Of a DNA stretch of 64,000 nucleotides, positions 40,554-63,939 are shown one piece after another. The stretch spans positions 96,001 to 160,000 of the forward strand of contig JBCBZT010000005.1 of assembly GCA_039815185.1 (NCBI GenBank), given 5' to 3'. Within the stretch, counting starts at the first letter, position 1. Each line of letters starts with the position of its first letter. This stretch comes from Cyanobacteria bacterium P01_A01_bin.123. GTDB lineage: Bacteria > Cyanobacteriota > Cyanobacteriia > Phormidesmidales > Phormidesmidaceae. The notes under the pieces are model-generated. The model did not search any database. It saw nothing but the letters and a program-made list of their open reading frames with translations, and had not been told where the DNA came from. A program made the translations under genes and the position numbers.

Positions 40554-40557
40554 GTTG

Positions 40558-40916: not shown

Positions 40917-41002
40917 ATTCAAACCTTTGGTTATGATGGTGGCGCCACACCCGGCATCCCCATCGCACTCCGGTGGGGTTTTACATTTCTACCCGCAGAC
41001 TC

Positions 41003-44921: not shown

Positions 44922-44924
44922 GGG

Positions 44925-45458
44925 TCACGCCTCCACAAGCTGGAATATGACGCGCCGCGCTTCCTCGTCCGAGTCTGTCCATCGCCCAGCGATTCGTCGC
45001 CAGTTTCCTGGCACCTGAAGTTTGACCTTGAAAACGCCAAAGCCATACTCATACCCTGCGTTCCAGGACGGGTTGAGAGCGCTCAGCAGTGTGCGGCTAT
45101 GGGGGGATGGCTCTGCATCTAGGTAGTCGATCTCGTCAATCAGCCGCAGCGCCCCATCGCGATAGGCTTTGTATTCGGCGTCTTGCCATTTGGCTAATGC
45201 TCCAAGCTGGATCGCCTCGTCCAGGGTGAGCATGACGGGCACAGTCCACAGATAGGTGGGCTCATAGCTTGGGCCGATAATCTGCGGTGTCCCTTCTGAT
45301 GAACGCTCCTCAACTTCTGCGTAGCCAGATTCCGATCTCAGCGGCTCTGCATCATCATCATCAGGCCACAGGTTGAGGGTGATCGAGGGGATTGGTGTGG
45401 TCGCGAAGTCGGAAGCGCCCGCGCCAGGTATTCCGAGGGTGAGGTCGCCTGCGACCAT
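44925..45458 (-). CDS. distal-tail-like protein
   Basis: Position after the tape measure; GGGAGG RBS. Confidence 0.6.
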   Translation of the reverse strand: MVAGDLTLGIPGAGASDFATTPIPSITLNLWPDDDDAEPLRSESGYAEVEERSSEGTPQIIGPSYEPTYLWTVPVMLTLDEAIQLGALAKWQDAEYKAYRDGALRLIDEIDYLDAEPSPHSRTLLSALNPSWNAGYEYGFGVFKVKLQVPGNWRRIAGRWTDSDEEARRVIFQLVEA

Positions 45459-45478
45459 CGAGGGAACCTCCCAATTGC

Positions 45479-45497
45479 TTCGGTGGGAAGATTCCTA
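45479..45497 (-). promoter_or_regulatory. late motif copy upstream of the distal-tail-like gene
   Basis: TAGGAATCTTC-CCAC-CGAA, 39 nt before ATG. Confidence 0.75.
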
Positions 45498-45529
45498 TGG
45501 AGTTTGGATGTCCTTGTTATCGTGGAAGT

Positions 45530-45724
45530 ATGGACTTCAAGCCCCAAGACCCTATCAAATACTTGGAAGGCGGCAAATGGATTGACGCCATTGTTATGGC
45601 TTATGCCGCCCCATTACTGAAGGTTGGCGTTGAAGTAAAGTGTCAGGGCAACGAGCGCTATCAAGTCGTTTCAATTAATTTGGCATACCCTGAGCAATGG
45701 CGATTGATTGGCCCGCCTTTCTAG
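45530..45724 (+). CDS. small hypothetical protein antisense to the tail operon
   Basis: Fills the gap between tape-measure and distal-tail genes; MDFKPQDPIKYLEGGKWIDAIV looks SH3-barrel-like; start may be 45497. Confidence 0.55.
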   Translation: MDFKPQDPIKYLEGGKWIDAIVMAYAAPLLKVGVEVKCQGNERYQVVSINLAYPEQWRLIGPPF

Positions 45725-48700
45725 AGCCCCGATCGCCTCACCATCTGGGCCATACGCTCCATCTCCAAACCTACAACGTCCTGTTGGGGTTGCTGGGTTT
45801 GCAGGGTGTAATAGGCTGGCGGTAGCTTTGCCGATCGATTGCTACGCACCTCATCAATCAGTGTCTGCATTTGCCGCTCAAGCCTTGCGGTACTCATAGC
45901 CACCGGAGCAGCCACCCCAGCGGTAAAGCTACCCATGGGGGCCATCAGGTTGGCAGCATCACGAGCGCTAAGGGCTTCTCTGACCAAAGCTCTGGATTGT
46001 TGCTGGCTGACCACCCGGGTCCCACGTGGAGGTACCAGGAATTCATCTTTGTGAACTTGCACCAAGCCACCTTCGGCCACGCCTCCAGACCTGAGGCTTT
46101 GGGCTGAGCTATCGCTACGAGCACTCTCCAGAATCGCAGCCACCCGCTCAGCATTCTGGCGATCAAGCCGCCGCTGCTCATCCTTGAATTCCCGCTCCCG
46201 ATCGCGCTCTGCATCAGCAAAGGCTTCCTCTAGCGCCCGTTGCTCATCCTCGAAGGCTCGCTGGGCATCCTCGGCTATCTGCTGGCGTTCCTCTTCAAGG
46301 TCTGCAATGCGTTGGGCTGATTGCTCGCGCAGGTCATTCAGCCTGAGTTCCTGGGCCTCTTTGAGCTGTTGGAGCTGCTCTTCATCGGCAATACGCTTCT
46401 GTTGCTGGGCTTCCTGAAACGCCTCCTGCTGGGCTTGTAAGCCGTCCTCAAAGTCTTGTCTGGCCTGCTCTAGTGGAGATAGCTCTAGCTGACCGTTGCG
46501 ATCTGCCTCGGCTAGGACACTGCCTGAATTGTTGAGTACCTCTTGCTCAATTTCTCGCCGTCGCCGTAGTTGCTCGTCTTCGGCAGCGAAGCGTTCTTCA
46601 AGGGCCCTTTCCTCCTCAGCATTAGCAGCCTGGTCTAAGGCAATGCGGCGCTCAACCTCTTGATTGAGGGCAGAGAATTCACGGTTGCCTCGATCGCGAA
46701 TAGCGGCGATCTCCTCCTGAAACGCCCGCTCCTCATTCTGGCGTTCTTGGTCAAGGCGGCGCTGGAGCTGGGCAACATCTTCGGCGTCCCGACGCTGCTG
46801 GGCGGCTATCTTGGCCTCAGAATCTTCCCTGAGCTTTGCAACCTGCTCCTCGGTTTGCTTTTTGAAAGCCGCTTGCTCCTCGTCAAATCGGGCTTCATCT
46901 TGCCGTGCTCGCGCTTCCTCGGCCCGTTCTCGCTGGAGGGCCGAATCATCGAAAGCCCGCTCGGCAGCTTCAGCAGCGGCACGGCGTTGCTCTTGGAGGG
47001 AGTCGGCTTCCGCTTTGGCCGCAGCTTGAGCGGCCTCAATTCTCGCCTGTGATGTGGATTCAGCAACATCTACCCGTTGCTTAGCGATATTTTCCTCAAG
47101 CTGTAGCAGCTCCTCTTGATCGTCGGCGCTAATTGTTCCGGCGTCTGCAAGGGCTTGCAGCTCACTAAGTCGCTCTTGATTGAGCCTCAGCCTTCTATCT
47201 AAGAAGCTCTGCTCGCTGGCCAATCGCTCCTCTTGACTGGCATCTTGATTGGCCAATCGCTCCTGTTCTGCTAGCTCCTCTAGCCTCAAAAGCCTCAGTC
47301 GCTCTTCGAGGGAGTTTTCTTGGCTTCTGGTGGAGTCTTCTAGGTCATTTGACGTCGCTGCTGTGCTGCTGCTAACAACGTTTCTCAGTCCTTGATATGC
47401 CCTGGCAAGTTCATTAATAGTGCCTGCTACTCCCCCAGTCTCAACTACCTCAGGAAACTGACCTAGAACGCCCAATGCTTGAAGGGCTTGGGCGCGTAAC
47501 TCTTGGATGCTGTCAATAAATCCAGTGATCTGATCGATGGCCGGCCCAAAGATGTCGGCTGCGGTTTCTCTGACCTGATCAATGAACTTGATTAGAGCCC
47601 CAATTTGGTCAATCAGGTTAAGGACGGGGCCGATCGGGCCTTGCATGGCAGCGGCAAAGCGCTCACCAAATACCGGAATCCCTTCGGCTGCGTCCTTTAT
47701 TTGATTGAAGGCGGTTATCAGGTCAAACAGAAACTGCACCGTTTCTCCAACGACCGTGATCGCCGTGCCAATACGTTCAATGTTTTGGGCAAATTGGTTG
47801 ATATTGGCGTCATTGCTCAGGAAGTCGGCGAAGGCATCAACCAGCCCAGCGAGTTGATTTGTCGCAGTGTCGAGAACAGACGCGATCGCCTGCCCAAGTC
47901 GCTCTGCAATCTCCGGGTTCTCCTCAAGTACACTTCCTAGCCTCTCCCCGGCCTGGTTAAGCGCGTCAAAGCCTTCGCTAGCGTCGGTTGTGGCCTCAAG
48001 TAAGTCTCTAGAGAACTCCACTACAGCCAGCTTGATAGGTGCTAAGGCTTGCCCGAACTCCGTCAGCGCAGCGCTGATTTGACCTTCCAATAACTCAGCT
48101 TGGCGCTCTAGGGATTGGTTGATGATCTCAAGTGATTCATCAACCGCCCCTGCTGAATTGCTCAGGTTTTCAAGAGTCTGCGCATACTTGCCATCAACCT
48201 GACCGAGTAGGGCTAAGATGGCTGGCGCACCTTCGTCGCCAAAAATCTTTTTGGCTAGCTCAAGCTGCTCTTGATTGTTCAGGTCTTGGGTTGCCGCTGC
48301 AAAGTTGCGGATAGTCTCCTCAAAACCCCTGAAGCTACCGTCCGCGTTGAATGCTAGGTTATCGACCCCGTCGATCTTCGCGGCTAGCCCACCTAGCAAC
48401 TCTTCAGCCTCGCCGCTGGGGGCTGATAGCCTTAGTAGGGAGATTCTTAGTCCTGTAGCTGCGGTAGCTGCCGAAAATCCACCGTCACGTAGCGTTGAAA
48501 ATCCCGCTGCAAGTTGGTCGAAGTCAGCATCCAGAGTGCCGGCCAGCGGCCCCACATCCTGAAAGAACTGGAAAAACTCTTCAATCCCTTGCGCCGAGCC
48601 CGCTGCCGTGGTGTTGATCAGCGTGTTCAGCTTGTCGGTGATACTATCTGCCGACTCGCCCAACTCTTCAAAGTTGTTGATGCCCGTCTGCACCACCCGC

Positions 48701-49302
48701 CCAGTCAGTACCGGGTCTTCGCCCAGTACATCGGACAGCTTGGTGATGCCCGCTAGGTTGGTCTCTACGTCGCTGGCGGTGGCTCCTAGCGTCAGTAAGG
48801 CTGTTGATAGAGCCGCAACACTAGCAGGCGTTTGGCTGGTGATAGCCGCAAGCTCTTTGGCCTGCTCCCCAATTCGCCCAATCTGCTCAGCGCTGGCGTC
48901 TGACTTGGCGTCGAACTCAGTTAATGCAGTCTCAAACGCCTCAAACTCTGTGATTGCCTGCCTGAGAGTATTGGCGACAGAGGCGATCGCCGCCTGAAAG
49001 CCCTGCACCGCGACCTGGGTGAGCTGCTGGCCAATCCCCTGGGCAATGCCCTGAAAGACCCCGCTAAGCCCCTGTGCCTCTTGCTTGGCCTTAGAGGTCT
49101 CCGCCTGTACCCGCTTCAGTTCTGCCGCAACCTGGGCCGCTTCTTTATCGCTCAGCTTGTATTCCTGAGCCAACAACCCCGCTAATCGATTAGCTTTTTC
49201 GGTTTCCGCGTTGACCTTTTGGATCGCTCTCTCAACGCCTTTTATTCCGCCGATTGAGGCAGTGTCGGCGTTGACCTTGATCTTTAGCTCGGTGTCTACC
49301 AC
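45721..49302 (-). CDS. tail tape-measure protein (TP901-like core)
   Basis: 1193 aa helical; AATAATGLRISLLRLSAPS...IFGDEG core; coiled coil; LRSGG...VQVHKDEFLVP tail. Confidence 0.92.
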   Translation of the reverse strand: MVDTELKIKVNADTASIGGIKGVERAIQKVNAETEKANRLAGLLAQEYKLSDKEAAQVAAELKRVQAETSKAKQEAQGLSGVFQGIAQGIGQQLTQVAVQGFQAAIASVANTLRQAITEFEAFETALTEFDAKSDASAEQIGRIGEQAKELAAITSQTPASVAALSTALLTLGATASDVETNLAGITKLSDVLGEDPVLTGRVVQTGINNFEELGESADSITDKLNTLINTTAAGSAQGIEEFFQFFQDVGPLAGTLDADFDQLAAGFSTLRDGGFSAATAATGLRISLLRLSAPSGEAEELLGGLAAKIDGVDNLAFNADGSFRGFEETIRNFAAATQDLNNQEQLELAKKIFGDEGAPAILALLGQVDGKYAQTLENLSNSAGAVDESLEIINQSLERQAELLEGQISAALTEFGQALAPIKLAVVEFSRDLLEATTDASEGFDALNQAGERLGSVLEENPEIAERLGQAIASVLDTATNQLAGLVDAFADFLSNDANINQFAQNIERIGTAITVVGETVQFLFDLITAFNQIKDAAEGIPVFGERFAAAMQGPIGPVLNLIDQIGALIKFIDQVRETAADIFGPAIDQITGFIDSIQELRAQALQALGVLGQFPEVVETGGVAGTINELARAYQGLRNVVSSSTAATSNDLEDSTRSQENSLEERLRLLRLEELAEQERLANQDASQEERLASEQSFLDRRLRLNQERLSELQALADAGTISADDQEELLQLEENIAKQRVDVAESTSQARIEAAQAAAKAEADSLQEQRRAAAEAAERAFDDSALQRERAEEARARQDEARFDEEQAAFKKQTEEQVAKLREDSEAKIAAQQRRDAEDVAQLQRRLDQERQNEERAFQEEIAAIRDRGNREFSALNQEVERRIALDQAANAEEERALEERFAAEDEQLRRRREIEQEVLNNSGSVLAEADRNGQLELSPLEQARQDFEDGLQAQQEAFQEAQQQKRIADEEQLQQLKEAQELRLNDLREQSAQRIADLEEERQQIAEDAQRAFEDEQRALEEAFADAERDREREFKDEQRRLDRQNAERVAAILESARSDSSAQSLRSGGVAEGGLVQVHKDEFLVPPRGTRVVSQQQSRALVREALSARDAANLMAPMGSFTAGVAAPVAMSTARLERQMQTLIDEVRSNRSAKLPPAYYTLQTQQPQQDVVGLEMERMAQMVRRSGL

Positions 49303-49304
49303 GA

Positions 49305-49979
49305 CTACTGAAGGGATGTGTCGTGGCGAGAGTTCCTAGGCGATTGAGTCTGGGGCGCTGCTCGATACTTGGCCCGCGCCTTGGCCCTTTGGTCTTTGGC
49401 CCAATTCTTGAACTCGGCCTTACGCCGCTCTTCTGGCGTTTTTCGCTGCCAGTTCGATTCCTCTAGGACTGCTAGGACTTCGCGGAATGGCTTAGCCGTT
49501 GCCACCTGATAGGCAAGTTCCAGATTGCCGCCGCAGTGGGAGGCGATCGCGGCTATGAGTGTCACCCGGTCGGTCTTGCCACTGTCGCCCTTTTCGCTGC
49601 TGGGATGACGCGGTTTGGGCGGTCGATTGAGGGTTTGGAGAGGAGCCTCGATGATTTCCCCGCCTTCTCGGCGATGAAAGATGAGCCAGCTCATCTCACG
49701 CGGCGTCACCCAGTCCAAGCTGATGCCGTTTAGCTCCAGGATGCGATCGCAGAGGTACTGAAACCGCTGGTGTTCACGGTAAAGGTCATCGACGGTTAGC
49801 TCGTTCGGGGCATCATTGGCGATCGCCCGGATTTCCTCCAGTCGATCCTCAAACTCGAAAATGCCAGTGACTGAACAGCCACTGGCAATGTGGTAGCGCC
49901 CCCCGCGCCCGCGAAACTCAAGTTCGCCAGAGCGCAGGAAGCAATAATCGTGCTCTCTCCTCTCCTCAATCCAGGGCAC
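49305..49979 (-). CDS. tail assembly chaperone-like protein
   Basis: Lies between tail tube and tape measure. Confidence 0.6.
   Translation of the reverse strand: MPWIEERREHDYCFLRSGELEFRGRGGRYHIASGCSVTGIFEFEDRLEEIRAIANDAPNELTVDDLYREHQRFQYLCDRILELNGISLDWVTPREMSWLIFHRREGGEIIEAPLQTLNRPPKPRHPSSEKGDSGKTDRVTLIAAIASHCGGNLELAYQVATAKPFREVLAVLEESNWQRKTPEERRKAEFKNWAKDQRAKARAKYRAAPQTQSPRNSRHDTSLQ
49320..49338 (-). promoter_or_regulatory. late motif copy upstream of the tape-measure gene
   Basis: TAGGAACTCTC-GCCA-CGAC, 36 nt before GTG; lies inside the upstream CDS. Confidence 0.75.
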
Positions 49980-50779
49980 TAGGAAGTTACCCCAGTATCA
50001 AGGTTGAAAATCTCAAACGGCTGCTCCCATCCGCTGGGGGTTTCCGCTGCGAACTCAACACTCAGAGTCGGTACGTCCTCACTCAAGTCGATATTGGGGC
50101 GTGACTTACGAGAGAGGGAAGGGAAGTGAATTACCCAATTGTCAGTTGACTCAGGGGTGTGGAGCTTCCCAAGGAAGCTGATTTTGCCGTACTTCGTCGC
50201 AGTTCCAGAGCCCCCATAGGCGGCGATACTGGTGTAGTTAGTGGGCACGCTATAGCTGATGGGAGCATTCGCTCGGTCGGCGTGAAGCACCAGCTTGTTG
50301 CCCGTGGCATCCACTTGCACTTCGCTAGCGCTAGCTGGTGCCGTAGAGGCATCGGCGGTGTGGATTAACGATTCCGGTTGCCCCCAAGTCCCAAAAGCGT
50401 TGACGTAAGCTTTGATGTAGTTGAGGTTGCCTGCTGTGATGGCGGCATCAGCAATCTCAAAAGCTGCGCTGGCAGGCACTGTAGCCTGCTTAAGTAACGG
50501 CAAAATAACGTTGGTTTGAGTTTTGGGAAACTCATTCAGTGCAAAGCCGAGCTGCGCCCAATCGGTGTACTGAGTGCTGAGGGTGAGCGTGTCGGTCACC
50601 TCGCTCTCTGCTGAGGATTTGGTCTTTCGGACGCCCTTAACGTAGCCCTTGGCTTCGCGGTTCTCAGACTCGCTGGTGAAGGTGAAGTCAAATAGGAAAA
50701 GCTCAATCAGTCTTTGTGCCACTTCCCCACCGCTGAGGTTTAGGGTTTGGGCGTAGCAATCGCCGAGGCCGGAAAGCAT
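49979..50779 (-). CDS. major tail tube protein
   Basis: Position, size and beta-rich composition. Confidence 0.7.
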   Translation of the reverse strand: MLSGLGDCYAQTLNLSGGEVAQRLIELFLFDFTFTSESENREAKGYVKGVRKTKSSAESEVTDTLTLSTQYTDWAQLGFALNEFPKTQTNVILPLLKQATVPASAAFEIADAAITAGNLNYIKAYVNAFGTWGQPESLIHTADASTAPASASEVQVDATGNKLVLHADRANAPISYSVPTNYTSIAAYGGSGTATKYGKISFLGKLHTPESTDNWVIHFPSLSRKSRPNIDLSEDVPTLSVEFAAETPSGWEQPFEIFNLDTGVTS

Positions 50780-50802
50780 AGGAATCTCTCTCGCGATGGT
50801 TG

Positions 50803-50821
50803 GTCGCGGGGAGAGTTCCTA
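50803..50821 (-). promoter_or_regulatory. late motif copy upstream of the tail tube gene
   Basis: TAGGAACTCTC-CCCG-CGAC, 42 nt before ATG. Confidence 0.75.
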
Positions 50822-50834
50822 TGCTGGGCGAGCC

Positions 50835-51041
50835 CTATTCGCTGGCGTCTTCCTTAGCTTCAGGCTCAACAAACGCCACAATCTTGCCTTGGCCCAGTAG
50901 CGCTTGGGTGACGGGGTGATCGGCAGGTAGCGTGACGCGATCGTTCATGTACTTCATCCCGCCTAGGTCTTTAAAGTTGATGTCGCCTTTGCAGACGAAC
51001 TCGGCGTTTTCAACGGGCGTAGTTTTCTTGGTTGTAGGCAT
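50835..51041 (-). CDS. small phage hypothetical protein
   Basis: AAGGA RBS; has its own upstream motif copy. Confidence 0.7.
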   Translation of the reverse strand: MPTTKKTTPVENAEFVCKGDINFKDLGGMKYMNDRVTLPADHPVTQALLGQGKIVAFVEPEAKEDASE

Positions 51042-51061
51042 AGTAAAAATCCTTGAAACGT

Positions 51062-51080
51062 TTCGCTGCGAGGATTCCTA
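51062..51080 (-). promoter_or_regulatory. late motif copy upstream of the 68-aa gene
   Basis: TAGGAATCCTC-GCAG-CGAA, 39 nt before ATG 51041. Confidence 0.75.
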
Positions 51081-51512
51081 GCCGACGCCGCGAATCATCA
51101 TGGGGAACTGAAAGCCTATTTCAAACTCCCAGTCCGAATCTGTTCGGCCAAGGAACTTGAAGCCGCTGCTGTAGCGCATTGCCCCGCATTTGGGCGGGCA
51201 GAATCCAATCAGATATTGGCTAATTTGGTTTTGTAGGTCGAACAAATCACCGTCGCCCCTCAGTCCACGTACCCGCCCGTAGATCGTGGCAATGCGGGTA
51301 ATAGCCTGAATTCGTCTATTGGCCCCAATCTTGCCCTGTGGCTTCTCGTCGAAACACACCAGGGTCAAAACCCCTTTACTCGTGGATTCTAGAAGCTCGC
51401 CGTACTCTTTGGGCTTCTCGGGCAAGGCATGGACGATCAGCCCGGTGTCGCGCAGGAATGCAAGCCGATCGACAATTGCTTGCTCGATCTCAACAGGATT
51501 GGGATTAGCCAT
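51078..51512 (-). CDS. tail terminator-like (Mu gp37-type) protein
   Basis: IEQAIVDRL...LIGFCPP; position before the tube gene. Confidence 0.65.
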   Translation of the reverse strand: MANPNPVEIEQAIVDRLAFLRDTGLIVHALPEKPKEYGELLESTSKGVLTLVCFDEKPQGKIGANRRIQAITRIATIYGRVRGLRGDGDLFDLQNQISQYLIGFCPPKCGAMRYSSGFKFLGRTDSDWEFEIGFQFPMMIRGVG

Positions 51513-51936
51513 CTACGTGCCTCTTCAGGATTTGCTCAATTGCATCGATATGCCGCTGGGCAAAGCCCATGTATCGGCGCTGCGGCATACGCTTAGTCCC
51601 TCGCTGATGCCAGAGTCCAGCGGTTCGATTAGCCGTCGTTTCTACACTTGACTGCGTTGCGCTGGCTGGGCGAGCTGTGATGCCAGAAACCAAGGAGCTG
51701 GTGTCTCTGAGGATGGCAGATGGAGCCTTGCGTTTCCGCTTCTGGATCAGTGTTGACTGCGCTAACGGTTGCCATGGGTTGCCGTCTGGGTCTTGCTGCT
51801 TGGCGAAGTTCTCCTTGGTCTGAGCCTCCATGTAAAGCGCTGCCTCGTTGAGCGCAGGCGTCCAATCCCTAGTCCGGTCTTCCACATCAGCGATCACCCG
51901 CAGCACTGCGTCGGCTTCGGTTTCAAGTTCAAACAT
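51505..51936 (-). CDS. phage virion morphogenesis/tail-completion protein
   Basis: NFAKQQDPDGNPWQPL..ST, ILRDT..L, HQRG...MPQRRYMG. Confidence 0.88.
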   Translation of the reverse strand: MFELETEADAVLRVIADVEDRTRDWTPALNEAALYMEAQTKENFAKQQDPDGNPWQPLAQSTLIQKRKRKAPSAILRDTSSLVSGITARPASATQSSVETTANRTAGLWHQRGTKRMPQRRYMGFAQRHIDAIEQILKRHVDG

Positions 51937-52318
51937 CGGAACTTTCCCCCCAAATCACACGAGCCTTAAATGTGCCGCTCAGCTTGGCCCCGAGCGCTGC
52001 TGTCACTGCTGTGTACGGCGACTGCACTACGGCAGCCAAGTAAAACTCACCCTGTAACTCGTCAATCGTTGCCGTGGCCTTACTCCCTGGCGGTAGAGAG
52101 GGAGGTAGCGCTGATGGATCAATACAACGCCCTTCAAGTTGAACCTCGTGAAGCTCGCTGCTGTTGTCGGATTGAGCGCGTGACGACTTCGGCACCAAGT
52201 AGGCACTCACTACCAGCGGCTGAGTGATCGTCGAGGGGTTCCCCAGGTTGTCTTCTTTTTTCTCGCCTATAGGCACCTGGAATGTGAGAGTGGCGTTTGC
52301 GGGAAAGACAGAAGCCAT
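51929..52318 (-). CDS. head-closure-like protein
   Basis: DNLGNP motif; position in the neck module. Confidence 0.6.
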   Translation of the reverse strand: MASVFPANATLTFQVPIGEKKEDNLGNPSTITQPLVVSAYLVPKSSRAQSDNSSELHEVQLEGRCIDPSALPPSLPPGSKATATIDELQGEFYLAAVVQSPYTAVTAALGAKLSGTFKARVIWGESSDV

Positions 52319-52335
52319 TTGGGTAGTGGCATAGC

Positions 52336-52379
52336 GTCGCTGCGAGAGTTCCTATTGGACTAGGAATTCTTAGATCGCA
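52336..52379. promoter_or_regulatory. back-to-back divergent late motif copies
   Basis: Minus TAGGAACTCTC-GCAG-CGAC (36 nt to ATG 52318); plus TAGGAATTCTT-AGAT-CGCA (38 nt to ATG 52399). Confidence 0.75.
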
Positions 52380-52398
52380 TTCCCCGCGTGATCGCTTT

Positions 52399-55300: not shown

Positions 55301-55467
55301 CCGCGAGCGATCGCACCCTTATCACTGACACCAATAAGCAGGTGAAAGCCGATGAAGTGAAAACCGCAACCACCTACCAGCGCAAGGAGGCAGGCACCGA
55401 AACGGTCATCCTCAATAAGACGATCGACATCCAGGGCGACAACGTCACTGTCACCAATGCCCCATGA
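52399..55467 (+). CDS. large phage fibre/virion appendage protein
   Basis: 1022 aa rich in T/S/G/A; F(K/Q)AD(V/L)SGL repeats; IWTHSDRTLT. Confidence 0.7.
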   Translation: MAAPSLSGLTAFVTTQSDLTPGSAYSSGFAVHSVASSTTTYGTGPRLRGSAGTSLPNIGTARYEPASSFDMSGSGCLVGMFRLSFDNSATTQAENGLIVGWSDGSSTELFSISGLDLSPEGDPFDYFALSGGITPDLSEGSPNLGSLTQAIFGASRNLASGGTAPNWIFDQVYWVNDLTLLDGEIANPSSFLWLKSEIDNLTPALSSNIGSDRQISLPFPLKNQAAYFNSEGEFLAFQQSDGIKRRYKSGFLRYLIEPSLATDYQRHAFGSLSSPEAFDVEVSSLAHASATIEIESYSFVSGGGTVTYRSPVVVAGGADSGFNTVHYIGGSISNRQVSGVSGRTTQVQIDCTPGQDLGAVGFQLGSNAQLALNPSSAGASAIALTGISATGTLDVVNLTSNAITITIASGQTFTTANNTGGVVTVQQPQIALTALNFADGVRVFAARQQTFRVNSADINTGTNEITLGADDETGATFAGQTTSPATLLLLTLADGATIPTTSPQIESGNLYYVVANTAGVVQISETEGGTAIAFTDAGTESGGQLLQLKAETELINAVVSGGDGLSSPLTLPTGAVLSVAAQHRPSAASASTLFERQVSWGSDGAAITETFSATNNPDTLHNALVGATIQSNSGLAVTVTSDGATVAGLAFDLSGDIQVDANAITDAVISFPDGYLWMVYMRSTEMGIRFIRNQFTAVGLMDFRFNSGLTIDNVADGIRNSPATTLTVYGNVQPTTGSTVVATESGTIHIVPFFVTSIASAGGGSSAPTVEQIWTHSDRTLTGSQATNIAALGTPNTFKADVSGLSTFDPATQTVDVGRVAGNAVTGTGDFQADLSGLTTAVGNIPTNPLLTTDMRLNNLNAPIGDIPTTAPLDAAAIQSAAAAALTAYDPPTRAELTADKAEVLLAINGLPAPSNATLANQQAILTAVGALPQSKEGYSLSAAGVTAVQSGLATPTDVTVTVDGGFTASDRTLITDTNKQVKADEVKTATTYQRKEAGTETVILNKTIDIQGDNVTVTNAP

Positions 55468-56192
55468 CGGTCTTAGCCCGATACCTCAGCAACGGCGCGA
55501 CTCAATACCTGGCAATCGCGCTGGGCTTTCAATCGGTTGTTGCAGATCAGGAACTCTCCCTGCAGGAACTCCTGTTTTTTGCCCGCTCTGTCAACGCTGA
55601 GATGAATCCAGGTATTTTCAATCTGCATATTCCGCAGGGCACGGATTACACCCTAGCGGTGACTGTGACAGGCGGCCCATCATTTAGGGCCCTGGCCACA
55701 AGTGCGGGCACAAACCAGATTCAGCTAATCGATCAGCTCTCTATCTCCCTCAGCACGAATGATAAGGTGGCGTTCGGCAATGCGATCGGAACCATTACGG
55801 CAGATGCAGGGCTGGGGTCAAAATCCCTGAATATTTCCCCGCTACTGTTTGATATCCCCCGCAACACTAAGGGCCAGAAGGTTTCTGACGTCACAGGGCA
55901 AACGGCAGAGGCTAAAATCTATAGCGACCTGGGGCAAACGGCAGTGGTGACCCTTACCGCAAACCTGACTGATGCCCCGACAGATGGGTTGATCCGGTTG
56001 AGTCTCTCTGATGCTCAGACCGCATCGCTTGCTGCGAATCTACCCGCTGGTGAATTCCTGACCGAGACAGAGATTCAATCTCGCAAGTACAGTGGCTCAG
56101 AATACCTCTGGCAGCTTGAGCTAACTGACACGAATGCCATTACCCGGCGCGTGCTTCAGGGTATTGTCCTCGTTTCGCCACAGGGGGTCTAA
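55464..56192 (+). CDS. phage structural protein (BppU-N-like adaptor)
   Basis: LHIPQGTDY...GLIRLSLSDAQTASL...WQLEL...RVLQGIV; ATGA-coupled. Confidence 0.65.
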   Translation: MTVLARYLSNGATQYLAIALGFQSVVADQELSLQELLFFARSVNAEMNPGIFNLHIPQGTDYTLAVTVTGGPSFRALATSAGTNQIQLIDQLSISLSTNDKVAFGNAIGTITADAGLGSKSLNISPLLFDIPRNTKGQKVSDVTGQTAEAKIYSDLGQTAVVTLTANLTDAPTDGLIRLSLSDAQTASLAANLPAGEFLTETEIQSRKYSGSEYLWQLELTDTNAITRRVLQGIVLVSPQGV

Positions 56193-56644
56193 TGGCTGAG
56201 CAGAGCGTTTGCGTTGCAATCACACCAGAGGTTGCTGGGGTCAGGATTGGTCATGGCTTCCCAATCCAAATCAATGGCAGCACTCAGGATGGCACGTTCT
56301 TAGCGCCGTCTTACCCGGCATCAGCAACCCTTTCGGCCCTGCGCGTCGTAACCCTCAATAGCAGCAATCAATGGGTTTATGCCGACAAAGACACCAGTGG
56401 TCATATCAATACAGCGATCGCGTTGCTGACTACAGCAGTCAACTCTGGCAGCTCAGTCCGTCCGGTGTTGCAAGGCTTGGTCGCCGATAGCAGTTGGAGC
56501 TGGTCTTTAGATACCCTCCTGTGGCTTGGTGCCAATGGGTTGTTAACCCAGACTCCACCAACGACAGGGTTTCTGAGGCAACTCGCCACGATTGTTAGCC
56601 CCACTCAAATCAACTTCAACCCACAGGAGGGTATTTCGTTGTGA
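56192..56644 (+). CDS. phage structural protein (capsid-fibre/cement-like)
   Basis: LSALRVV...LWLGANGLLTQTPPTTGF; TAATG-coupled. Confidence 0.7.
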   Translation: MAEQSVCVAITPEVAGVRIGHGFPIQINGSTQDGTFLAPSYPASATLSALRVVTLNSSNQWVYADKDTSGHINTAIALLTTAVNSGSSVRPVLQGLVADSSWSWSLDTLLWLGANGLLTQTPPTTGFLRQLATIVSPTQINFNPQEGISL

Positions 56645-57144
56645 GTTCAAACAGATTTCTCAGTGTCGTTAGCGGGGTCAAAACCCTGCTAACCGCGATT
56701 GCAACTTCGGCTGGTGCGGGTGACGCCAATAAAATTATCGCCACTGACGGTAGTGGCAAAATCGACATCACCTTTATGCCTTCTGGGGTTGGCGCAGATA
56801 CCCTCAGTATTGAGGCAAGCGAGAACTTGAGTGCCGGCGACTTCATTAATATCCACGATGTAAGCGGGGCAAGGGTTCGCAAGGCCGACAACTCCAACAC
56901 TCGCCCTGCTCATGGCTTTGTCCTTAGCTCGGTTACTAGCGGCGCTAACGCGACCGTCTACCTCTCCGGTGCCAACACTGGGTTAACAAGCTTAACGCCA
57001 GGTACGCGCTATTACCTGGGCACTGCCGGGGCCGCTACGGCAACTGCCCCCAGTGCATCAGGGGAAATTGTTCAGTATCTGGGCGCGGCAAATAGCACCA
57101 CAAGCTTGGTGTTTGAAGATAACGAGTACACCGCGATCTCATAA
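56641..57144 (+). CDS. phage structural protein, paralogous to the preceding gene
   Basis: ASENLSAGDFINI...LTPGTRYYLG; GGAGG RBS. Confidence 0.75.
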   Translation: MSSNRFLSVVSGVKTLLTAIATSAGAGDANKIIATDGSGKIDITFMPSGVGADTLSIEASENLSAGDFINIHDVSGARVRKADNSNTRPAHGFVLSSVTSGANATVYLSGANTGLTSLTPGTRYYLGTAGAATATAPSASGEIVQYLGAANSTTSLVFEDNEYTAIS

Positions 57145-57146
57145 GT

Positions 57147-57629
57147 ATGGCCAAGACCCTGATTGAGCTAGCAAGCGGCATCCGTCGAGCCAGCGTTGAA
57201 CTCTCGACATACTTTGAAGGGCTGATGAATGCTGCCGATGCGGCTGCTGTGAGGACGGCGTTATCGGCGGCGGCTCTCAATGTGGCTCAAGCATTCACTA
57301 AGGGGCAGCGATCAGCGCCTGTCGCTCTATCCATTAGTAGCGGTGTTGTCGCAATCGACGCCAGCGCTTCAAATATTTTTACCCTAAGCCTCACCGAAAA
57401 TGTGACCAGTGTCACGCTCAGCAACTTAGCGGCAGGCACTAATTTCGACCTGCATATCACCCAGGATGCGACTGGTGGGCGTACTGTAGTGGGTTGGGCT
57501 GCTGCCTTTAAATGGCCTGGGGGGACAGCGCCGACAATAACCAGTGCTGCCAATGCCGAGGACTTCATCAGCTTTGAGTCGGCGGATGGTACGACAGTTA
57601 AAGGCTTCTATGCACAGGACTTCGGCTGA
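57147..57629 (+). CDS. phage fibre-type protein
   Basis: ITQDATGGRTV..W...KWPGGTAPTIT motif, common in tail-fibre proteins. Confidence 0.75.
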   Translation: MAKTLIELASGIRRASVELSTYFEGLMNAADAAAVRTALSAAALNVAQAFTKGQRSAPVALSISSGVVAIDASASNIFTLSLTENVTSVTLSNLAAGTNFDLHITQDATGGRTVVGWAAAFKWPGGTAPTITSAANAEDFISFESADGTTVKGFYAQDFG

Positions 57630-58360
57630 TGAGCGTATTGACGGTACCTGCTGCGATCACGTCTCAACAAGCATCAGTTGCTAGCCCACTACTCACCGAT
57701 CTTCTGTTATGGGCAGAGAACTACAGTCAAGGAACATGGGCCGATAGCCATAGCAGCGGTAACGACCTAACAATGATTGGAACCGTAGCAGATGATGGCG
57801 CTGGCTCTGCCGTTTATGGCAGCAGCACAAGCAACTACCATGCTTCAACATCGAACGATGCCTTGCGCACCATCTCTACATCTTCGTTTAGCTTCTCTCT
57901 TGTTGTAACGGTGACGAGCAGTTCAACTTTTAGCAACAGTGGCGTTGTTGCAAGTGTTTATCGAGCGTCAGGGAACAGCCGGGGATGGTTTGTTGACTTC
58001 CCGAACAACACCACGGCTCGGTTCCTGACCTCTGAGAACGGGCAAAGTGGTGGAAGCCTGAACATCGTCAGCGTTGCCACCAGTATAAGCCTGGACACTG
58101 AATACACAGTTCAGGGCTACTACGATTCTGAAAACGATCAGATCGCCATCCGAGTGAATGATGGGGCATTTGGTGTTACGACTGGCGTCACCGTGATCAA
58201 CACCTCTACTTCCGATTTCCGCCTAGGTCAGATTGCTGATCCGGGTAATCGCTTCATCGGCGAAATCAGGAAAGTCATTCTGTGGGGTCGAAAGCTTTCG
58301 ACCATCGAATTCGATCAGGTGTATAACGGTGGTAGCCCGATTGGTTACCCTGGCCCATGA
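57629..58360 (+). CDS. LamG/concanavalin A-like lectin-domain protein
   Basis: FRLG...FIGEIRKVILWGRKLS..E...VYNGG C-terminal signature. Confidence 0.75.
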   Translation: MSVLTVPAAITSQQASVASPLLTDLLLWAENYSQGTWADSHSSGNDLTMIGTVADDGAGSAVYGSSTSNYHASTSNDALRTISTSSFSFSLVVTVTSSSTFSNSGVVASVYRASGNSRGWFVDFPNNTTARFLTSENGQSGGSLNIVSVATSISLDTEYTVQGYYDSENDQIAIRVNDGAFGVTTGVTVINTSTSDFRLGQIADPGNRFIGEIRKVILWGRKLSTIEFDQVYNGGSPIGYPGP

Positions 58361-58851
58361 CGTTGTCTCAAATCGATACAAAAATGAGACGCCTGTTTTA
58401 GCCCGCTGGTTAGTGTGCCAATTTAAGAAATTCGATGGGCTACTTTAGGACTAAGTGTGACAGTTGGGGGTATGTGCCAGTTGGCTGAACCCCTTTAAAT
58501 CTCATTAAGTCCACGAAGAGGACAGCAAAACGCCAAGCCTCTTTCATATCAATGCTTTCGGGTACTTTTAGGGCTTTGACTAGTTGCCTGTTAAGCAAAC
58601 ATTATCAGCCTGGACTAGGCTAAATCCCTCGTCTCACAGGTGTCTCATCAATTCAAGCGCTACGATTGGGCCGACGATCGTTGAGGTTCGATGTGTCCCC
58701 TGTATTCATCTGGCAACGCAACGCTGGCCCATGGGAGACGATTGCGGAGGGTGAAAACCTGAGGCTTGGCTTCCCCCTTCAATACAACGGCAAGTCGTGG
58801 CCAGAAATCGCGATCGAAGGCTGGCGCGGCGTCTACATTACTCAATCGCAA

Positions 58852-58903
58852 AATGTTCGCCATGAACAATTCCGGAATTCCGTAAAAGTTCACGGCGAAC
58901 ATT
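58852..58903 (-). terminator. 16-bp hairpin directly after the head-tail adaptor stop codon
   Basis: AATGTTCGCCATGAAC-N20-GTTCACGGCGAACATT; the single mismatch is a G:U pair on the minus strand. Confidence 0.55.
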
Positions 58904-59299
58904 CTAGGGTCTGAGGCTCGGGATGAATGATCGCGTCCCCCGTCGCCTCGCTGCAACCCCATCGCACTTAACGCAGTCAAGGGCTGCTGCTTCAAATCCA
59001 GTCGGCACGCTCAGCCCCTTCGCTGAATCGTAAGAGGCTTGCAATGCCAGTAGCGATTCAATAGGCTTGGCTAACCCGGTGAACTTGGCCCCATCCGCCT
59101 CAGTTAAGGTCTGCGCGGTTTGGTTCTGTTCTAACCACTTGGCGGCTACGTAGAAGGGGCGGTAGTGAGTTACGGCCCCGACATCTACCCCCGCGCTCAT
59201 CACCAGCAGTTCGGTTAGGTAGGCATCATCCGCAGCACTGGCCCCACTACGTTCTTTGGCACGGGCGAGGGCGTCAGTTATCACAAGGTAGGTGGTCAC
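58904..59299 (-). CDS. head-tail adaptor-like protein
   Basis: Helical 131-aa protein downstream of the capsid gene. Confidence 0.6.
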   Translation of the reverse strand: MTTYLVITDALARAKERSGASAADDAYLTELLVMSAGVDVGAVTHYRPFYVAAKWLEQNQTAQTLTEADGAKFTGLAKPIESLLALQASYDSAKGLSVPTGFEAAALDCVKCDGVAARRRGTRSFIPSLRP

Positions 59300-59302
59300 C
59301 TG

Positions 59303-59533
59303 CTAGAGCCTCACTACCCAGTCTTCAGCTAGAACGTCGCTTTGAGATGTTACCCAAGGAACAAGATCGCCTTGGGCGGTCTTTATGAAGATGTAGGGCA
59401 GGGTCATTTTTGAGTGTTCATCTGGGCGTTGCAGCTCTAAGTACATTCCTTTGCCGTTCCATCCGGCGCGATGAGCTTGTCCGCCCCTCTTCAGGGCATG
59501 TAATGCGTCGCCAAAATCCAATGGTGTGCTCAT
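59303..59533 (-). CDS. tad2: DUF2829-family protein (Tad2-like anti-defence sponge)
   Basis: FGDAL..LK.G....RAGWNGKGMYL...PYI......G..VPW..SQSDVLAEDW. Confidence 0.85.
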   Translation of the reverse strand: MSTPLDFGDALHALKRGGQAHRAGWNGKGMYLELQRPDEHSKMTLPYIFIKTAQGDLVPWVTSQSDVLAEDWVVRL

Positions 59534-59928
59534 TGTTGTTCCTCTAGGTTGATTTCGATAAGCTCTTGAGCAATCTCGGGGCTGAACTCCTTCTCAATGA
59601 TTCGCAGGAAGCTAGCATCCCATCCATCAGGATGCTTTTGGGCTCCGACGCGATCGCCGATTTCCTTGATAGCTGCCCAGTCGCGCTTGCCTTCAGCGTC
59701 ATAGATGCGCTTCAGTTCTTCAAGGCGTTCTGCCGCCATTCTTAGCAGGGCATCTTGAGTTGGCTGTGGCGACTCAGGCTTACCCTGTTCAGCGACCGGA
59801 ATTCCGGTCGTGGCCTCCAGGCCCAGCGCGATCGCCAGATCCTGAGGCACAAAGGTACAGCCAGCAGGGTAACGTTTCCCGCGCCATCCCGTTGATTCAG
59901 TGAGGGGTGGTATCTCAACAAAACTCAT
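59530..59928 (-). CDS. phage hypothetical protein
   Basis: 132-aa ORF coupled to the next gene. Confidence 0.75.
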   Translation of the reverse strand: MSFVEIPPLTESTGWRGKRYPAGCTFVPQDLAIALGLEATTGIPVAEQGKPESPQPTQDALLRMAAERLEELKRIYDAEGKRDWAAIKEIGDRVGAQKHPDGWDASFLRIIEKEFSPEIAQELIEINLEEQQ

Positions 59929-59940
59929 TGGTTGACCCCC

Positions 59941-61113
59941 CTACGCAGTCGGGCGTTGCACGCGAATCACGTAATAGGCTTGTGGGTCAGTGATGACCGG
60001 CAATCCCGTTTGATAGCTTTCACCCCCCATGCCGACCGGCTTCTTCTCATTCATCCAAGTGTGAATGGTGCGTCCGCTGGCGTCTTTGCCAGGGTTGCGA
60101 CCCACACCGTAATAGCCCAAGGTGTCGTTGAGGACGATGGAGCCATCAGTAAAGCCGCTGATATCAGTATTAGTGGCCCCCACATAGTCGCTGGCGATTT
60201 CGTAGTTGCGCTGGGTGCTACCGACCATCAATAGATAGTCGTAGCCCGCTTCTACATCCATGTAACGATTGAAGCCAACCTCGCTTTCGTAGCCGCCGTT
60301 GTAGCGGGTTAACACCGGATAGCCTTCGTCTGTGAACACATCATCCAGGATTTGATTGCTCACCCGGTTGGTTGAGCTGACAATCTCACTGTTGGAGTTG
60401 ACCACCACGAATGAGGTGCGCTTGATCACCTCAGCGTTAAGCCGCAGAGTCCTTGCAAGATAAGGCGTGGCATACATGCTGGTCACGTCATACCCTAGGC
60501 CATTGAGCTTTTCTAAGCCTGCTTCAATGTCATCAAATGGATCGTAGGTATTCAGGTTCCAGCCTTGAGGCGCAGCCTGGGTGCCACCAGGAATCGTAAC
60601 GACGTGGTCAGCAGGACGATAGTAATTGATCGGCTCCATTTGGCCATTGATCGTTTGGCGAGTGGTTACTGCTGTCAGGAGTGCCTGCCAACGCTGAATC
60701 TCATTCTTGATGACATGAGGCTGAAGCAGCTCGAGGTCAGTCCATCCGATGACCCGCGACATCGCTTCCATGTCGCCGCCGCGCATCAGCAGCTTGCGCA
60801 AGTCATCGTAGTCCTTGCCAGTTAAGTCTTTTTGAGTGTCGGTATGGCCCAGGTCAACGCGGAAGCTGCCGATCAGATGGCCGTTCTTTTGCTTCTGAGT
60901 TGGGCTGTAACGGTTGTTGTCGAGGGCAGGGCGAGTCCGATAACGAACCTGAGTTTCTTCGTAGGCGTTCTCTTCAACAATTCGCTCAGGGAGGATTCGT
61001 GCGCCAAGTAGCGGCTGACGCTCGGAGCCAAATTGAGCTTGAGGATCGAGCGCGAGGCGCTGAAAATAACGCTCCTCTTGCAACTCTTCATAAAGTTCGT
61101 AAAAGGTTTTCAT
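59941..61113 (-). CDS. major capsid protein (lambda E-like)
   Basis: ~390 aa after decoration and scaffold genes; E..RWQAL, W...T.DPFDDIE, LPVITDP; ATG at 61113 with GAGG RBS. Confidence 0.85.
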   Translation of the reverse strand: MKTFYELYEELQEERYFQRLALDPQAQFGSERQPLLGARILPERIVEENAYEETQVRYRTRPALDNNRYSPTQKQKNGHLIGSFRVDLGHTDTQKDLTGKDYDDLRKLLMRGGDMEAMSRVIGWTDLELLQPHVIKNEIQRWQALLTAVTTRQTINGQMEPINYYRPADHVVTIPGGTQAAPQGWNLNTYDPFDDIEAGLEKLNGLGYDVTSMYATPYLARTLRLNAEVIKRTSFVVVNSNSEIVSSTNRVSNQILDDVFTDEGYPVLTRYNGGYESEVGFNRYMDVEAGYDYLLMVGSTQRNYEIASDYVGATNTDISGFTDGSIVLNDTLGYYGVGRNPGKDASGRTIHTWMNEKKPVGMGGESYQTGLPVITDPQAYYVIRVQRPTA

Positions 61114-61135
61114 TGCGGCCTCTCGCGCCTGTGAT

Positions 61136-61154
61136 GTCAGCGAGAGGATTCCTA
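61136..61154 (-). promoter_or_regulatory. late motif copy upstream of the capsid gene
   Basis: TAGGAATCCTC-TCGC-TGAC, 41 nt before ATG. Confidence 0.75.
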
Positions 61155-61158
61155 TGCG

Positions 61159-61186
61159 CAAAAACCCCGTGATTGCTCACGGGGTT
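61159..61186 (-). terminator. intrinsic terminator between the decoration and capsid genes
   Basis: Minus strand AACCCCGTGA-GCAA-TCACGGGGTT-TTTG. Confidence 0.7.
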
Positions 61187-61211
61187 ACTTTGTCAATATC
61201 GAGCGTTGATC

Positions 61212-61835
61212 TTAACTGGGGTAGACCAGGCAATCATAAAGTTCTCGAATCTTGGCTTGTTGAGCCGCTGTCATATCAGCCCATCCAGGTAGCTTATTCT
61301 CGTAAATCTGGGTGTCATGACGCACTAGGGTGATGCCTGCATCCTGCTCTAGATATTCGTTTTGGAAAGCTACGAGATGGATCTCATCATCATTGGCAAC
61401 ATCAGCCACGCCAAAGCCTGTACCTGCAGCGCGTTCAGTATAGGTGCGACCTACTAGCACCCCGGAGCGAGCAACAGTGCGCCCACTGGAGCCCGGATAG
61501 TCATAACTATCGCCATCTGCGGTATTAGCTGCCAAGGTGCCCGTTAGGGTGGTGGCCCCTCGGTTGGCACGCTTCTCAAGAGCGAGCAGCTTGCCGCTGC
61601 CAAAATCTAGAATGACTCCTCTCAAGATGTTGCCCTGCAGTGCTTGGGTCAGCGTTAGCTCAACGCCACTTCCTGCCACTGCCGCGCCACTTAGGGTTAG
61701 CGTCTGTTCATCGGAATAGCCAAATTCACTAATCTCTGCCTGGGTACCTGCTGGCACCAAGCATCTGTCGGTAAGCTCCTCAGCCGCCCATTCGGGCATT
61801 TGCATGGTTTGGGATTCCCAGGTCACTCCAGGCAT
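61212..61835 (-). CDS. head decoration-like protein
   Basis: Lies between scaffold and capsid; SGVLVGR, IYENKLP. Confidence 0.65.
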   Translation of the reverse strand: MPGVTWESQTMQMPEWAAEELTDRCLVPAGTQAEISEFGYSDEQTLTLSGAAVAGSGVELTLTQALQGNILRGVILDFGSGKLLALEKRANRGATTLTGTLAANTADGDSYDYPGSSGRTVARSGVLVGRTYTERAAGTGFGVADVANDDEIHLVAFQNEYLEQDAGITLVRHDTQIYENKLPGWADMTAAQQAKIRELYDCLVYPS

Positions 61836-61862
61836 GGTTAAAGTCCTCGTTTTTGTTAGGCG

Positions 61863-62543
61863 TTATTGTTCGGTGGCAAGGGATTTAGCGCCTGACCTGT
61901 GCTTGCTCAGGTAGCTAGTGAGAGGATTCAAGTCACTCCCACCCTTGGGTGAGCCACTGGGCAGTTGGGTCTTCTTGCCCTTGGTGTCGTTGCCGCCCTT
62001 GGGTGGTTCAGTTGTGGGGAACAGTGCAGGGATGAAGGCTTTCAGCGCGTCATCGCCCTCGACGTACTCACGCAGTGGCTTATCGCCCAACTTGACGCCA
62101 TCGTCTGCGATCGCCAGCTCATCAACCTTGTCACCAAGCAGCTTCTCGAGCACCTCAACACTCGCCCCTGCCTTGGTCGCAACCTCAGACAGTTTGGTGC
62201 GGCGTTCGGCGGTTTTTACCTTCCCTTCTGCTTCAGTGGCTCGGGTTTCGAGTGCGGTCTTATCCGTTCGCAGCTTTTCAGCTTCGGAGACCAGCCCCGT
62301 TACTTTGGTCTGTGCGTTTTCTAGGATTGCATCGACATCGCCTTCAATGCCTAGCGCCTTGCCGATCGCTTCCAGAGCGGTCTGCATCGACTGGGCCTTG
62401 GTGGTGGCGTTACGCTTTTCGCCAATGATCTCGAAATTCTTGCTGTTGAGGCGTTCCACTTCTCCTTCAACCGCAGATACCAGATCTGCCGCATCATCAA
62501 CTTCCAGAGCCTTGATGCGCTTTAGGGCTTCCTTGTAATCCAT
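61863..62543 (-). CDS. capsid scaffolding-like protein
   Basis: Acidic coiled coil with flexible G/P-rich tail. Confidence 0.7.
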   Translation of the reverse strand: MDYKEALKRIKALEVDDAADLVSAVEGEVERLNSKNFEIIGEKRNATTKAQSMQTALEAIGKALGIEGDVDAILENAQTKVTGLVSEAEKLRTDKTALETRATEAEGKVKTAERRTKLSEVATKAGASVEVLEKLLGDKVDELAIADDGVKLGDKPLREYVEGDDALKAFIPALFPTTEPPKGGNDTKGKKTQLPSGSPKGGSDLNPLTSYLSKHRSGAKSLATEQ

Positions 62544-62562
62544 TGCGATACTGCTTCAGTAG

Positions 62563-62581
62563 GTCGCGGGGATGATTCCTA
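62563..62581 (-). promoter_or_regulatory. late motif copy upstream of the scaffold gene
   Basis: TAGGAATCATC-CCCG-CGAC, 38 nt before ATG. Confidence 0.75.
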
Positions 62582-63700: not shown

Positions 63701-63744
63701 GCGTTGGTCGAAGTGAAGATAGCCCCATGATGGCTCATGAATCG

Positions 63745-63939
63745 TTAGCTGGAGCCAGGCGCGATCGGCTCAAACTGAATACCGTTGTCACCTTCTACAG
63801 GGAGAATATGATCTATGTGCCCTGAGGCAATGGGCATGGGAATACCATTCGGGAAAGCCTCGCAAGTCCACCCTTTGTCGCTGTTGCGCTGCATTGGTCT
63901 AAGGTGCTTGCAGCTACTACAACCCGGCCAATCTTCCAT
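63745..63939 (-). CDS. small Cys-rich phage protein
   Basis: CSSCKH...CEAFPNGIP...DH..PVEGDNGIQFEP; GGAGG RBS; TAATG-coupled to the upstream gene. Confidence 0.75.
   Translation of the reverse strand: MEDWPGCSSCKHLRPMQRNSDKGWTCEAFPNGIPMPIASGHIDHILPVEGDNGIQFEPIAPGSS

Follow-up and report, generated by a model that had tools for sequence, protein, structure and literature searches.

In phage T4, the genes e, soc, 49, I-TevI, I-TevII, I-TevIII and segB, and likewise mobE of Aeh1, have a late promoter that overlaps or adjoins the 5′ arm of a hairpin masking the Shine-Dalgarno (SD) sequence and/or the AUG, according to the accessible text of PMC3014915 and PMC2988022. For gene e, a 100-fold effect is reported there. 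A second point of reference is provided by the cyanobacterial promoters of the SigJ and SigF type. In Nostoc, the J-Box GGGaAtacT constitutes an extended -10 element, and the -35 element is weak or dispensable (accessible parts of PMC6495340 and PMC11407516); the three Gs of the J-Box are described for SigJ, in the available text of PMC6495340, as absolutely conserved. In the mapped SigF promoter of Synechocystis, the GGG occupies -15 to -13 (PMC2532724 and the review PMC2758279, each in the portion available).

The prophage described here resembles both systems. A J-Box-like motif recurs shortly upstream of its genes, and we put at roughly 0.7 the probability that this late promoter doubles as a gene-specific translation lock.

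The window is the 64,000-nucleotide stretch G000:C82:96001-160000, and coordinates given below are those of the window unless C82 is named. Positions 40130..64000 hold the left part of a prophage of ~65 kb, which extends from an att site in a tRNA to G000:C82:~201400; the tRNA lies at 40130-40202, and its 3′ part is directly repeated at C82 ~201340-201400, bounding the prophage. The tRNA is also the only Rfam match in the window. Genes for tape measure, neck/tail completion, major capsid, scaffold, Mu F-like protein, portal and terminase were recognised in the prophage by profile matches. The tail tube assignment of the 266-aa gene at 50779 comes from YomU_Tube matches in the ESM Atlas, and the label 'distal tail' for the 177-aa gene at 45458 is based on position only, its profile searches having returned no match. 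Relatives of the prophage are located in cyanobacteria of the host's family. No cultured phage was matched by the capsid, and viral contigs queried with the capsid or the phage sigma factor as single proteins gave no matches, while alignment queries did find some; the tail tube was not found in the 5 close relatives searched.

The motif and its promoter register

The motif, TAGGAAYYNTYNNNNYG, is present in 8 copies in the window, each 36-42 nt 5′ of a start codon, with motif starts at 45497, 49338, 50821, 51080, 52354, 61154 and 62581 on the minus strand and at 52361 on the plus strand. All eight copies, and all of the hairpin arms quoted in the sequence-only reading that preceded this analysis, were verified in the sequence. 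The strict pattern, which was fitted to these copies, gives 8 matches in the window against 0.14 expected. With a looser J-Box-shaped pattern, 13 TAGG-type sites were found in the 65-kb prophage, where the rest of the genome would predict 0.5; all 13 lie 33-44 nt 5′ of start codons, and a fourteenth site is of the CAGG type. Six motif copies fall outside the window, at C82 -161916, +163500, -166887, -168731, +168842 and -172951 (the sign giving the strand). Non-structural genes lie directly upstream of the last of these, a layout that would put its gene on an early or middle read-through transcript; most other copies come after late genes.

Between the tape measure and 'distal tail' genes, a 75-aa ORF without a family match runs antisense (45497..45724, plus strand), and its first ATG overlaps the motif.

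The J-Box GGGaAtacT aligns with motif positions 2-10. Since the GGG of the SigF promoter stands at -15 to -13, the T at motif position 10 would correspond to -7, and the G at position 17 to +1. When only a 6-nt core was imposed on 18 related contigs, T was found at position 10 in 77 of the 101 sites, a pyrimidine at position 16 in 69 and a purine at position 17 in 80, this core set including the prophage's own sites and chance matches. Among the TAGG sites (n=63), a pyrimidine-purine (YR) step occupies positions 16-17 in 48, versus 2 and 11 in the adjacent registers. The motif has the extended -10 of a J-Box with its conserved A and T, albeit as a variant in which the first G is replaced by A in all 13 strict prophage sites. 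At the copies that head divergent units, no other conserved upstream element is present, and a pattern scan for sigma-70 promoters and terminators gave no excess over shuffles.

The motif is thus most likely the late promoter of a family of temperate cyanobacterial phages, an extended -10 of the SigJ/SigF (J-Box) type in which the host's first G is either A or G, and its +1 is predicted at motif position 17. The earlier claim that the motif is a late promoter receives computed support from the J-Box/SigF register and the YR enrichment, which place the predicted +1 where the 5′ hairpin arm reaches its 3′ end.

A +1 at motif position 21-22, considered at first, was abandoned in view of the J-Box register, the SigF geometry and the YR enrichment. 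The motif was also considered as a -35 element, a sigma-54 site or a T7-like promoter, all of which were rejected by its spacing and by the sigma factor present.

Leader hairpins and upstream stop codons

Each leader in the window was folded and scored against 200 dinucleotide shuffles, the counts below being the shuffles that fold at least as well. The strongest lock is found in the tail tube leader (50776..50824, minus strand; motif start 50821), where the predicted +1 at 50805 lies in a 19-bp hairpin that buries the ATG at 50779 (-27.6 kcal/mol, z -8.2, 0/200 shuffles); cutting at the predicted +1 leaves -3.5 kcal/mol, and the upstream stop is 14 nt before the motif. In the tape measure leader (49299..49338, minus strand; predicted +1 49322), the arms 49326-49320 and 49305-49299 bury the GTG, 6/200 shuffles are as stable, and the predicted energy goes from -14.6 to -1.9 kcal/mol on cutting. 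This leader is embedded in the 3′-terminal part of the ORF upstream, the stop of which lies 2 nt ahead of the GTG. The leader of the 68-aa gene at 51041 (51044..51080, minus strand; predicted +1 51064; arms 51080-51071 and 51053-51044) is equalled by 3/200 shuffles and goes from -15.0 to -1.7 kcal/mol, and the Gp37-like gene upstream terminates at the TAG of its motif.

The 'distal tail' and capsid leaders are borderline. In the former (45463..45497, minus strand; motif 45497-45480, predicted +1 45481), a 5′ arm at 45495-45484 faces a 3′ arm at 45473-45463 that contains GGAGG; 29/200 shuffles fold as well (p 0.047 in a longer window), and cutting at the predicted +1 is predicted to shift the energy from -15.2 to -5.8 kcal/mol. 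In the latter (61119..61154, minus strand; predicted +1 61138), an 8-bp hairpin with arms 61147-61140 and 61126-61119 buries GAGAGG ahead of the ATG at 61113, 13/200 shuffles are as stable, and the corresponding values are -14.8 and -5.0 kcal/mol. Directly 5′ of the capsid promoter lies a terminator-like hairpin with a U run (61160..61186, minus strand; -19 kcal/mol, z -4.7), which the terminator pattern scan had missed.

The scaffold leader (62545..62581, minus strand; predicted +1 62565) forms a weak hairpin 5′ of the ATG at 62543, which is not beyond chance (40/200 shuffles). Cutting takes it from -11.0 to -2.6 kcal/mol, but its inner 5-bp stem is downstream of the predicted +1 and survives truncation; here the TAG of the motif is the stop codon of an upstream 373-aa ORF. 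The divergent pair had been described as weakly paired, and so it proved. The late promoter of the gene at 52318 (52337..52354, minus strand; predicted +1 52338) has no lock across +1 (lock -0.4; 155/200 shuffles as stable), and that of the inverted plus-strand cassette (52361..52378; predicted +1 52377), which starts at 52399 and carries tail-fibre-like genes, has no net lock (-0.3; 105/200). Outside the window, 300 shuffles gave p 0.003 for the portal, 0.047 for a portal remnant, 0.09 for the Mu F-like gene and 0.93 for the small terminase.

Pairing with the gene's own initiation region had been claimed for six of the eight leaders. By predicted fold, a hairpin over the SD or start codon is indeed present in all six on RNA initiated upstream, yet only three of the eight leaders consistently beat their shuffles; two are borderline and the scaffold does not. 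The same division holds for the comparison of long and cut leaders that the sequence-only reading had proposed, in that the stems are removed at the predicted +1, but five of the eight are not consistently beyond shuffles.

It had further been suggested that read-through mRNA is silent. This is too strong, as at 19 of the 39 co-oriented sites in the phage family the last base of the upstream stop falls at -5..+3 relative to the motif start, and it is these sites, represented in the window by the scaffold and gene 51041, that have the highest mean lock (5.2 kcal/mol). When a ribosome reaching 9-12 nt past the stop is modelled, with footprint lengths that are an assumption, the mean opening energy falls from 10.9 to 8.7-6.7 kcal/mol, compared with 5.7 kcal/mol for the short RNA. 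Because the upstream stop abuts the motif and the modelled ribosome lowers the opening energy, read-through RNA with a translated upstream gene may escape silence; a terminating ribosome at the adjoining stop probably also opens the hairpin. A proposed tie between the lock and a co-oriented upstream gene amounts to a trend only: the lock is 4.1 kcal/mol in co-oriented leaders (n=39) and 2.8 kcal/mol in divergent ones (n=18; p 0.07), with ORFs of at least 80 aa taken as neighbours, and the capsid lock follows a terminator-like hairpin.

The abutting stops, their high mean lock and the closeness of the ribosome-covered energies to that of the short RNA are also what might be expected of translational-coupling hairpins, in which the stem mainly makes the translation of a gene depend on the ribosome that finishes the gene before it, the promoter just happening to occupy the same short intergenic space. 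However, the strong locks of the tail tube, the capsid and the inverted portal are out of the reach of such a ribosome, and in every class of leader the predicted +1 marks the end of the arms; tight abutment of stop and promoter can also be a product of genome compaction. We therefore regard coupling in place of a promoter-linked lock as unlikely; as an addition, it is compatible with a promoter that doubles as a lock.

A phage-encoded relative of SigF

The prophage carries a gene for a SigF-like sigma factor (C82 170801-171679, plus strand), for which SigF (NF005644) is the best NCBIfam match. Its score of 166 bits is below the cut-off of 261, whereas the host paralogs reach 387 and 393; its identity to the two host SigF-family paralogs is 39-40%. 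By these scores, the protein is a divergent relative of the cyanobacterial SigF subfamily, not a member. Among the sigma matches listed, the best 30 of 142 records, identity to the phage protein is at most 30%. In close relatives the sigma was missed at E 1e-40, yet it is present there at about 35% identity, and the gene was found in six of the eight related records that measure at least 43 kb. Two motif-bearing records, G014:C175 and G174 (the latter 61% complete), gave no sigma match.

In sigma factors, the region 4.2 helix reads the -35 element. The Arg-Arg pair of this helix is missing in all four phage sigmas aligned and kept in both host proteins, and the loss of these basic residues may well have made the phage sigma a -10-only factor.

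While the strict late sites of the prophage are TAGG in 13 of 13 cases, host sites at the same distance from the ATG are of the GGG type in 10 of 10. This difference suggests that the TAGG variant is read by the phage's own sigma, which is its most likely reader. The late promoters could instead be read by the host's SigJ/SigF, as the host-type G at position 2 in 58 of 142 phage sites and the presence of motifs in G014:C175, where no sigma was matched, would allow. Against such a host reader stand both the TAGG/GGG division and the absolute conservation that PMC6495340, in its available text, ascribes to SigJ's three Gs; we consider it quite improbable, and the lock would be unaffected by it.

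Leader-specific pairing and comparison with known systems

Across the phage family, leaders were picked by motif and distance alone. The first set was taken from 18 of 43 scanned records (10 duplicates had been dropped earlier; 25 that were short, distant or motif-poor were excluded), and of its 101 core sites 71 passed the filter, giving 68 unique leaders that include 12 of the 14 late sites of the prophage itself and 4 other matches. The energy for opening the initiation region drops by 3.75 kcal/mol in these leaders on cutting at position 17, versus 1.22 kcal/mol in 275 non-motif genes. When promoter halves were swapped between leaders, the own pair was better (p 8e-7), both in the prophage itself (n=16, p 0.004) and in its relatives (n=52, p 2e-5). 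The second set, drawn from 29 of 49 sigma-alignment loci (9 duplicates or near-duplicates and the 11 weakest being excluded) and from unused parts of four records, comprises 74 new leaders. Here the drop is 3.80 versus 1.56 kcal/mol (250 of 557 control genes) and the swap p is 2e-6, or 6e-5 for the 63 leaders from sigma-selected loci alone. Over all 142 leaders, own pairing exceeds swapped pairing with p 2e-11, and because the phages are related, these p-values overstate independence. The swap test is null in 150 non-motif phage genes (p 0.42) and at 111 host GGG (J-Box) sites (p 0.23). The leader-specific pairing first noted in the window thus holds across the phage family.

The excess pairing extends over motif positions 8-18, with none left at 19, and involves nucleotides -9 to +1 relative to the start codon. 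Motif leaders require 9.3 kcal/mol for opening when long and 6.1 when cut at position 17, compared with 7.3 and 6.7 kcal/mol for controls; long motif leaders are more closed than controls, and short ones are slightly more open. The top tenth of swaps holds 58 of 142 leaders, versus 21 of 150 and 20 of 111 controls. As modelled, the lock is therefore common but not universal, with a predicted hairpin clearly locking about 40% of leaders and many promoters having none. The description of the promoter as an anti-RBS arm holds insofar as the initiation region is paired; it is this region more than the SD that is paired, since a clear SD is present in only 39 of 142 leaders and the excess is centred on the start codon.

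A possible objection is that these are ordinary late promoters, whose hairpins are a by-product of a pyrimidine-rich promoter beside a purine-rich initiation region, the tail tube alone being real. Swapped leaders do pair too, at a mean of about -6.8 kcal/mol, over half of the leaders are unremarkable, and five of the eight in the window were seen above to fall short of consistently beating shuffles. Yet own pairing exceeds swapped pairing in two separate sets and in neither type of control. Furthermore, the capsid arms of the window and of the related locus L057 differ at two paired positions, and both form perfect 8-bp stems. This explanation is accordingly held to be very unlikely.

Covariation among homologous leaders, which had been proposed as a check, was not found: RNAalifold gave no consensus pairs in 10 scaffold leaders and 3 unrelated pairs in 5 capsid leaders. 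Neither an Rfam match nor a covarying fold places these leaders in a conserved structured RNA family, and the stems seem, from the modelled folds, to be rebuilt in shifting registers between orthologs. Tests for RNA-specific pairing were null (sense versus antisense p 0.20; 8 G-T versus 6 A-C mismatches).

Most improbable is that the motif is an RNA site at which a phage protein, an activator or a nuclease in the manner of Mu Com, opens or cuts the hairpin after transcription from upstream. In favour of such a site, pairing of the GGAA purines (positions 5-6) is lower than on either side, and every copy lies on the sense strand, immediately 5′ of the stem. Against it stand the constant J-Box register (T at -7, YR at -1/+1), the SigF-like sigma of the same phages, a hairpin geometry that is not conserved, and the divergent units, at whose head the motif is the sole conserved upstream element.

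From the computed motif, J-Box register, sigma gene and leader-specific complementarity, we infer promoter activity, its sigma reader, its +1, folding at the RNA level and an effect on translation, which for the promoter that doubles as a lock would combine as follows. The phage SigF-like sigma would start late RNAs at motif position 17, and the promoter bases that it leaves unfixed, at about -9 to -1, would be tuned gene by gene to pair with the gene's own initiation region. RNA arriving from upstream would carry both arms, fold into the hairpin and be poorly initiated, whereas RNA started at the motif would lack the 5′ arm and be translated freely from an open leader of 17-28 nt. Where an upstream stop abuts the motif, the terminating ribosome would open the hairpin as a second route. 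No match to Rho above cut-off was found in the host genome, so untranslated read-through may go unterminated, which would provide a motive for the lock. The lock might also keep virion genes off in the lysogen and adjust their stoichiometry, as the sequence-only reading had proposed.

A wider scenario is offered tentatively, and we lean against it as a whole. A widespread, uncultured family of cyanobacterial phages may have captured a host motility/stress sigma (SigF/SigJ), stripped it of -35 recognition, shifted its specificity and turned the unread promoter bases into a gene-specific lock. The late genes would then be insulated two-key cassettes, opened by their own start site or by a ribosome at the overlapping stop, in which stray read-through is silenced in a host without Rho.

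The arrangement proposed for the prophage would work like that of T4 e, soc, 49 and I-TevI. In T4, going by the accessible literature, longer transcripts carry a hairpin that hides the SD and/or AUG, late transcripts are without its 5′ arm, and a phage sigma reads the promoter, which consists of a -10 element only; for the prophage, the corresponding features are predicted. The T4 examples, in the same sources, are a handful of late genes inside early or middle units, whereas in the prophage family the hairpins are spread over the virion genes of temperate phages. Unlike in T4, read-through would come largely from other late units, the promoter is of the J-Box type and most leaders are without a clear SD.

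With cyanobacterial SigJ/SigF promoters, as given in the available portions of PMC6495340, PMC2532724 and PMC11407516, the phage motif shares R-G-G at -15 to -13, A at -11, T at -7 and the lack of a conserved -35, and the phage sigma falls with the SigF subfamily by best match. It differs in that the sigma scores under the family threshold and its region 4.2 is degenerate, and in that the promoter prefers A at -15 and T at -16; host J-Box sites, for their part, have no leader-specific pairing. A search of largely open-access literature found neither J-Box-type late promoters nor such hairpins in cyanophages, and neither is described in the accessible text of PMC12284385, PMC5780444 and PMC6157547.

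What is known is the gate mechanism of T4, and what would be new is its family-wide use with a phage-owned variant of the J-Box. The late regulon proposed here, with its sigma, promoter and predicted start site, is base-precise and testable, and belongs to a temperate cyanophage family found here without a cultured relative. As a part for gene expression in cyanobacteria, an 18-bp promoter with its own sigma and insulation against read-through would be useful as well. Moreover, the comparison suggests that the hairpin gate, described in T4 for individual genes, can serve as a design principle for virion genes in general.

Capsid leaders and inverted genes

In the window, as in the relatives G159, L051, L055 and L057, the capsid leader carries a predicted promoter, and a terminator-like hairpin, the motif and a predicted lock are all present. 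The capsid genes of G036, G042, G044 and G166 have no promoter before them, and possess a plain GAGGAG SD instead. Also within the head module of the window lies a gene for a Tad2-like anti-Thoeris domain (59303-59533, minus strand; Pfam E 5e-25).

On L001, a stretch of the same contig that runs on beyond the window, the portal gene (5536-6975, plus strand) points the opposite way from the head operon and has its own predicted promoter and a 10-bp hairpin. A predicted promoter and hairpin are also retained by a short portal-like remnant behind the large terminase gene (L001:8651-8848, minus strand). A tail-fibre-like cassette (window 52399-58360, plus strand) is a reverse-oriented insert between two small genes that are adjacent in G042, and two predicted promoters stand back-to-back there, 6 bp apart.

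Antisense and host-type sites

The 3' arm of the tail tube hairpin itself spells the motif on the plus strand (window 50779-50796), opposite to the tube promoter. There, a one-base bulge shifts the register such that the -7 T is absent, and the bulge may be a way of avoiding an antisense promoter.

Between the Xer-like recombinase gene, whose leader has a strong predicted lock (14 kcal/mol, computed), and the phage sigma gene lies the palindromic GGGAATATTCCC (L001:12727-12743; G000:C82 ~170727-170743), which presents one J-Box-like site on each strand. Both sites are of the host (GGG) type, so the phage sigma might first be switched on by host SigF/SigJ. Upstream of the G166 sigma gene, no equivalent sense-strand J-Box-like site was found. 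At a separate locus, close to the immunity region, an 892-residue protein contains an eCIS core domain (L002:7178-9856, plus strand).

A candidate lysis gene

A pentapeptide-repeat protein gene (L001:14949-16598, minus strand) contains a run of ~30-bp repeats in which the motif core is present and the motif register absent. The first motif-led gene past the non-structural block is L001:14364-14915 (minus strand), where the TAG of the motif is the stop codon of the upstream gene. Its product shows a weak ESM Atlas likeness (0.90) to a Mu-like releasin, DUF2730, and it is possibly a lysis gene. Should this be so, it would parallel T4 e, also a lysis gene with the arrangement considered here.
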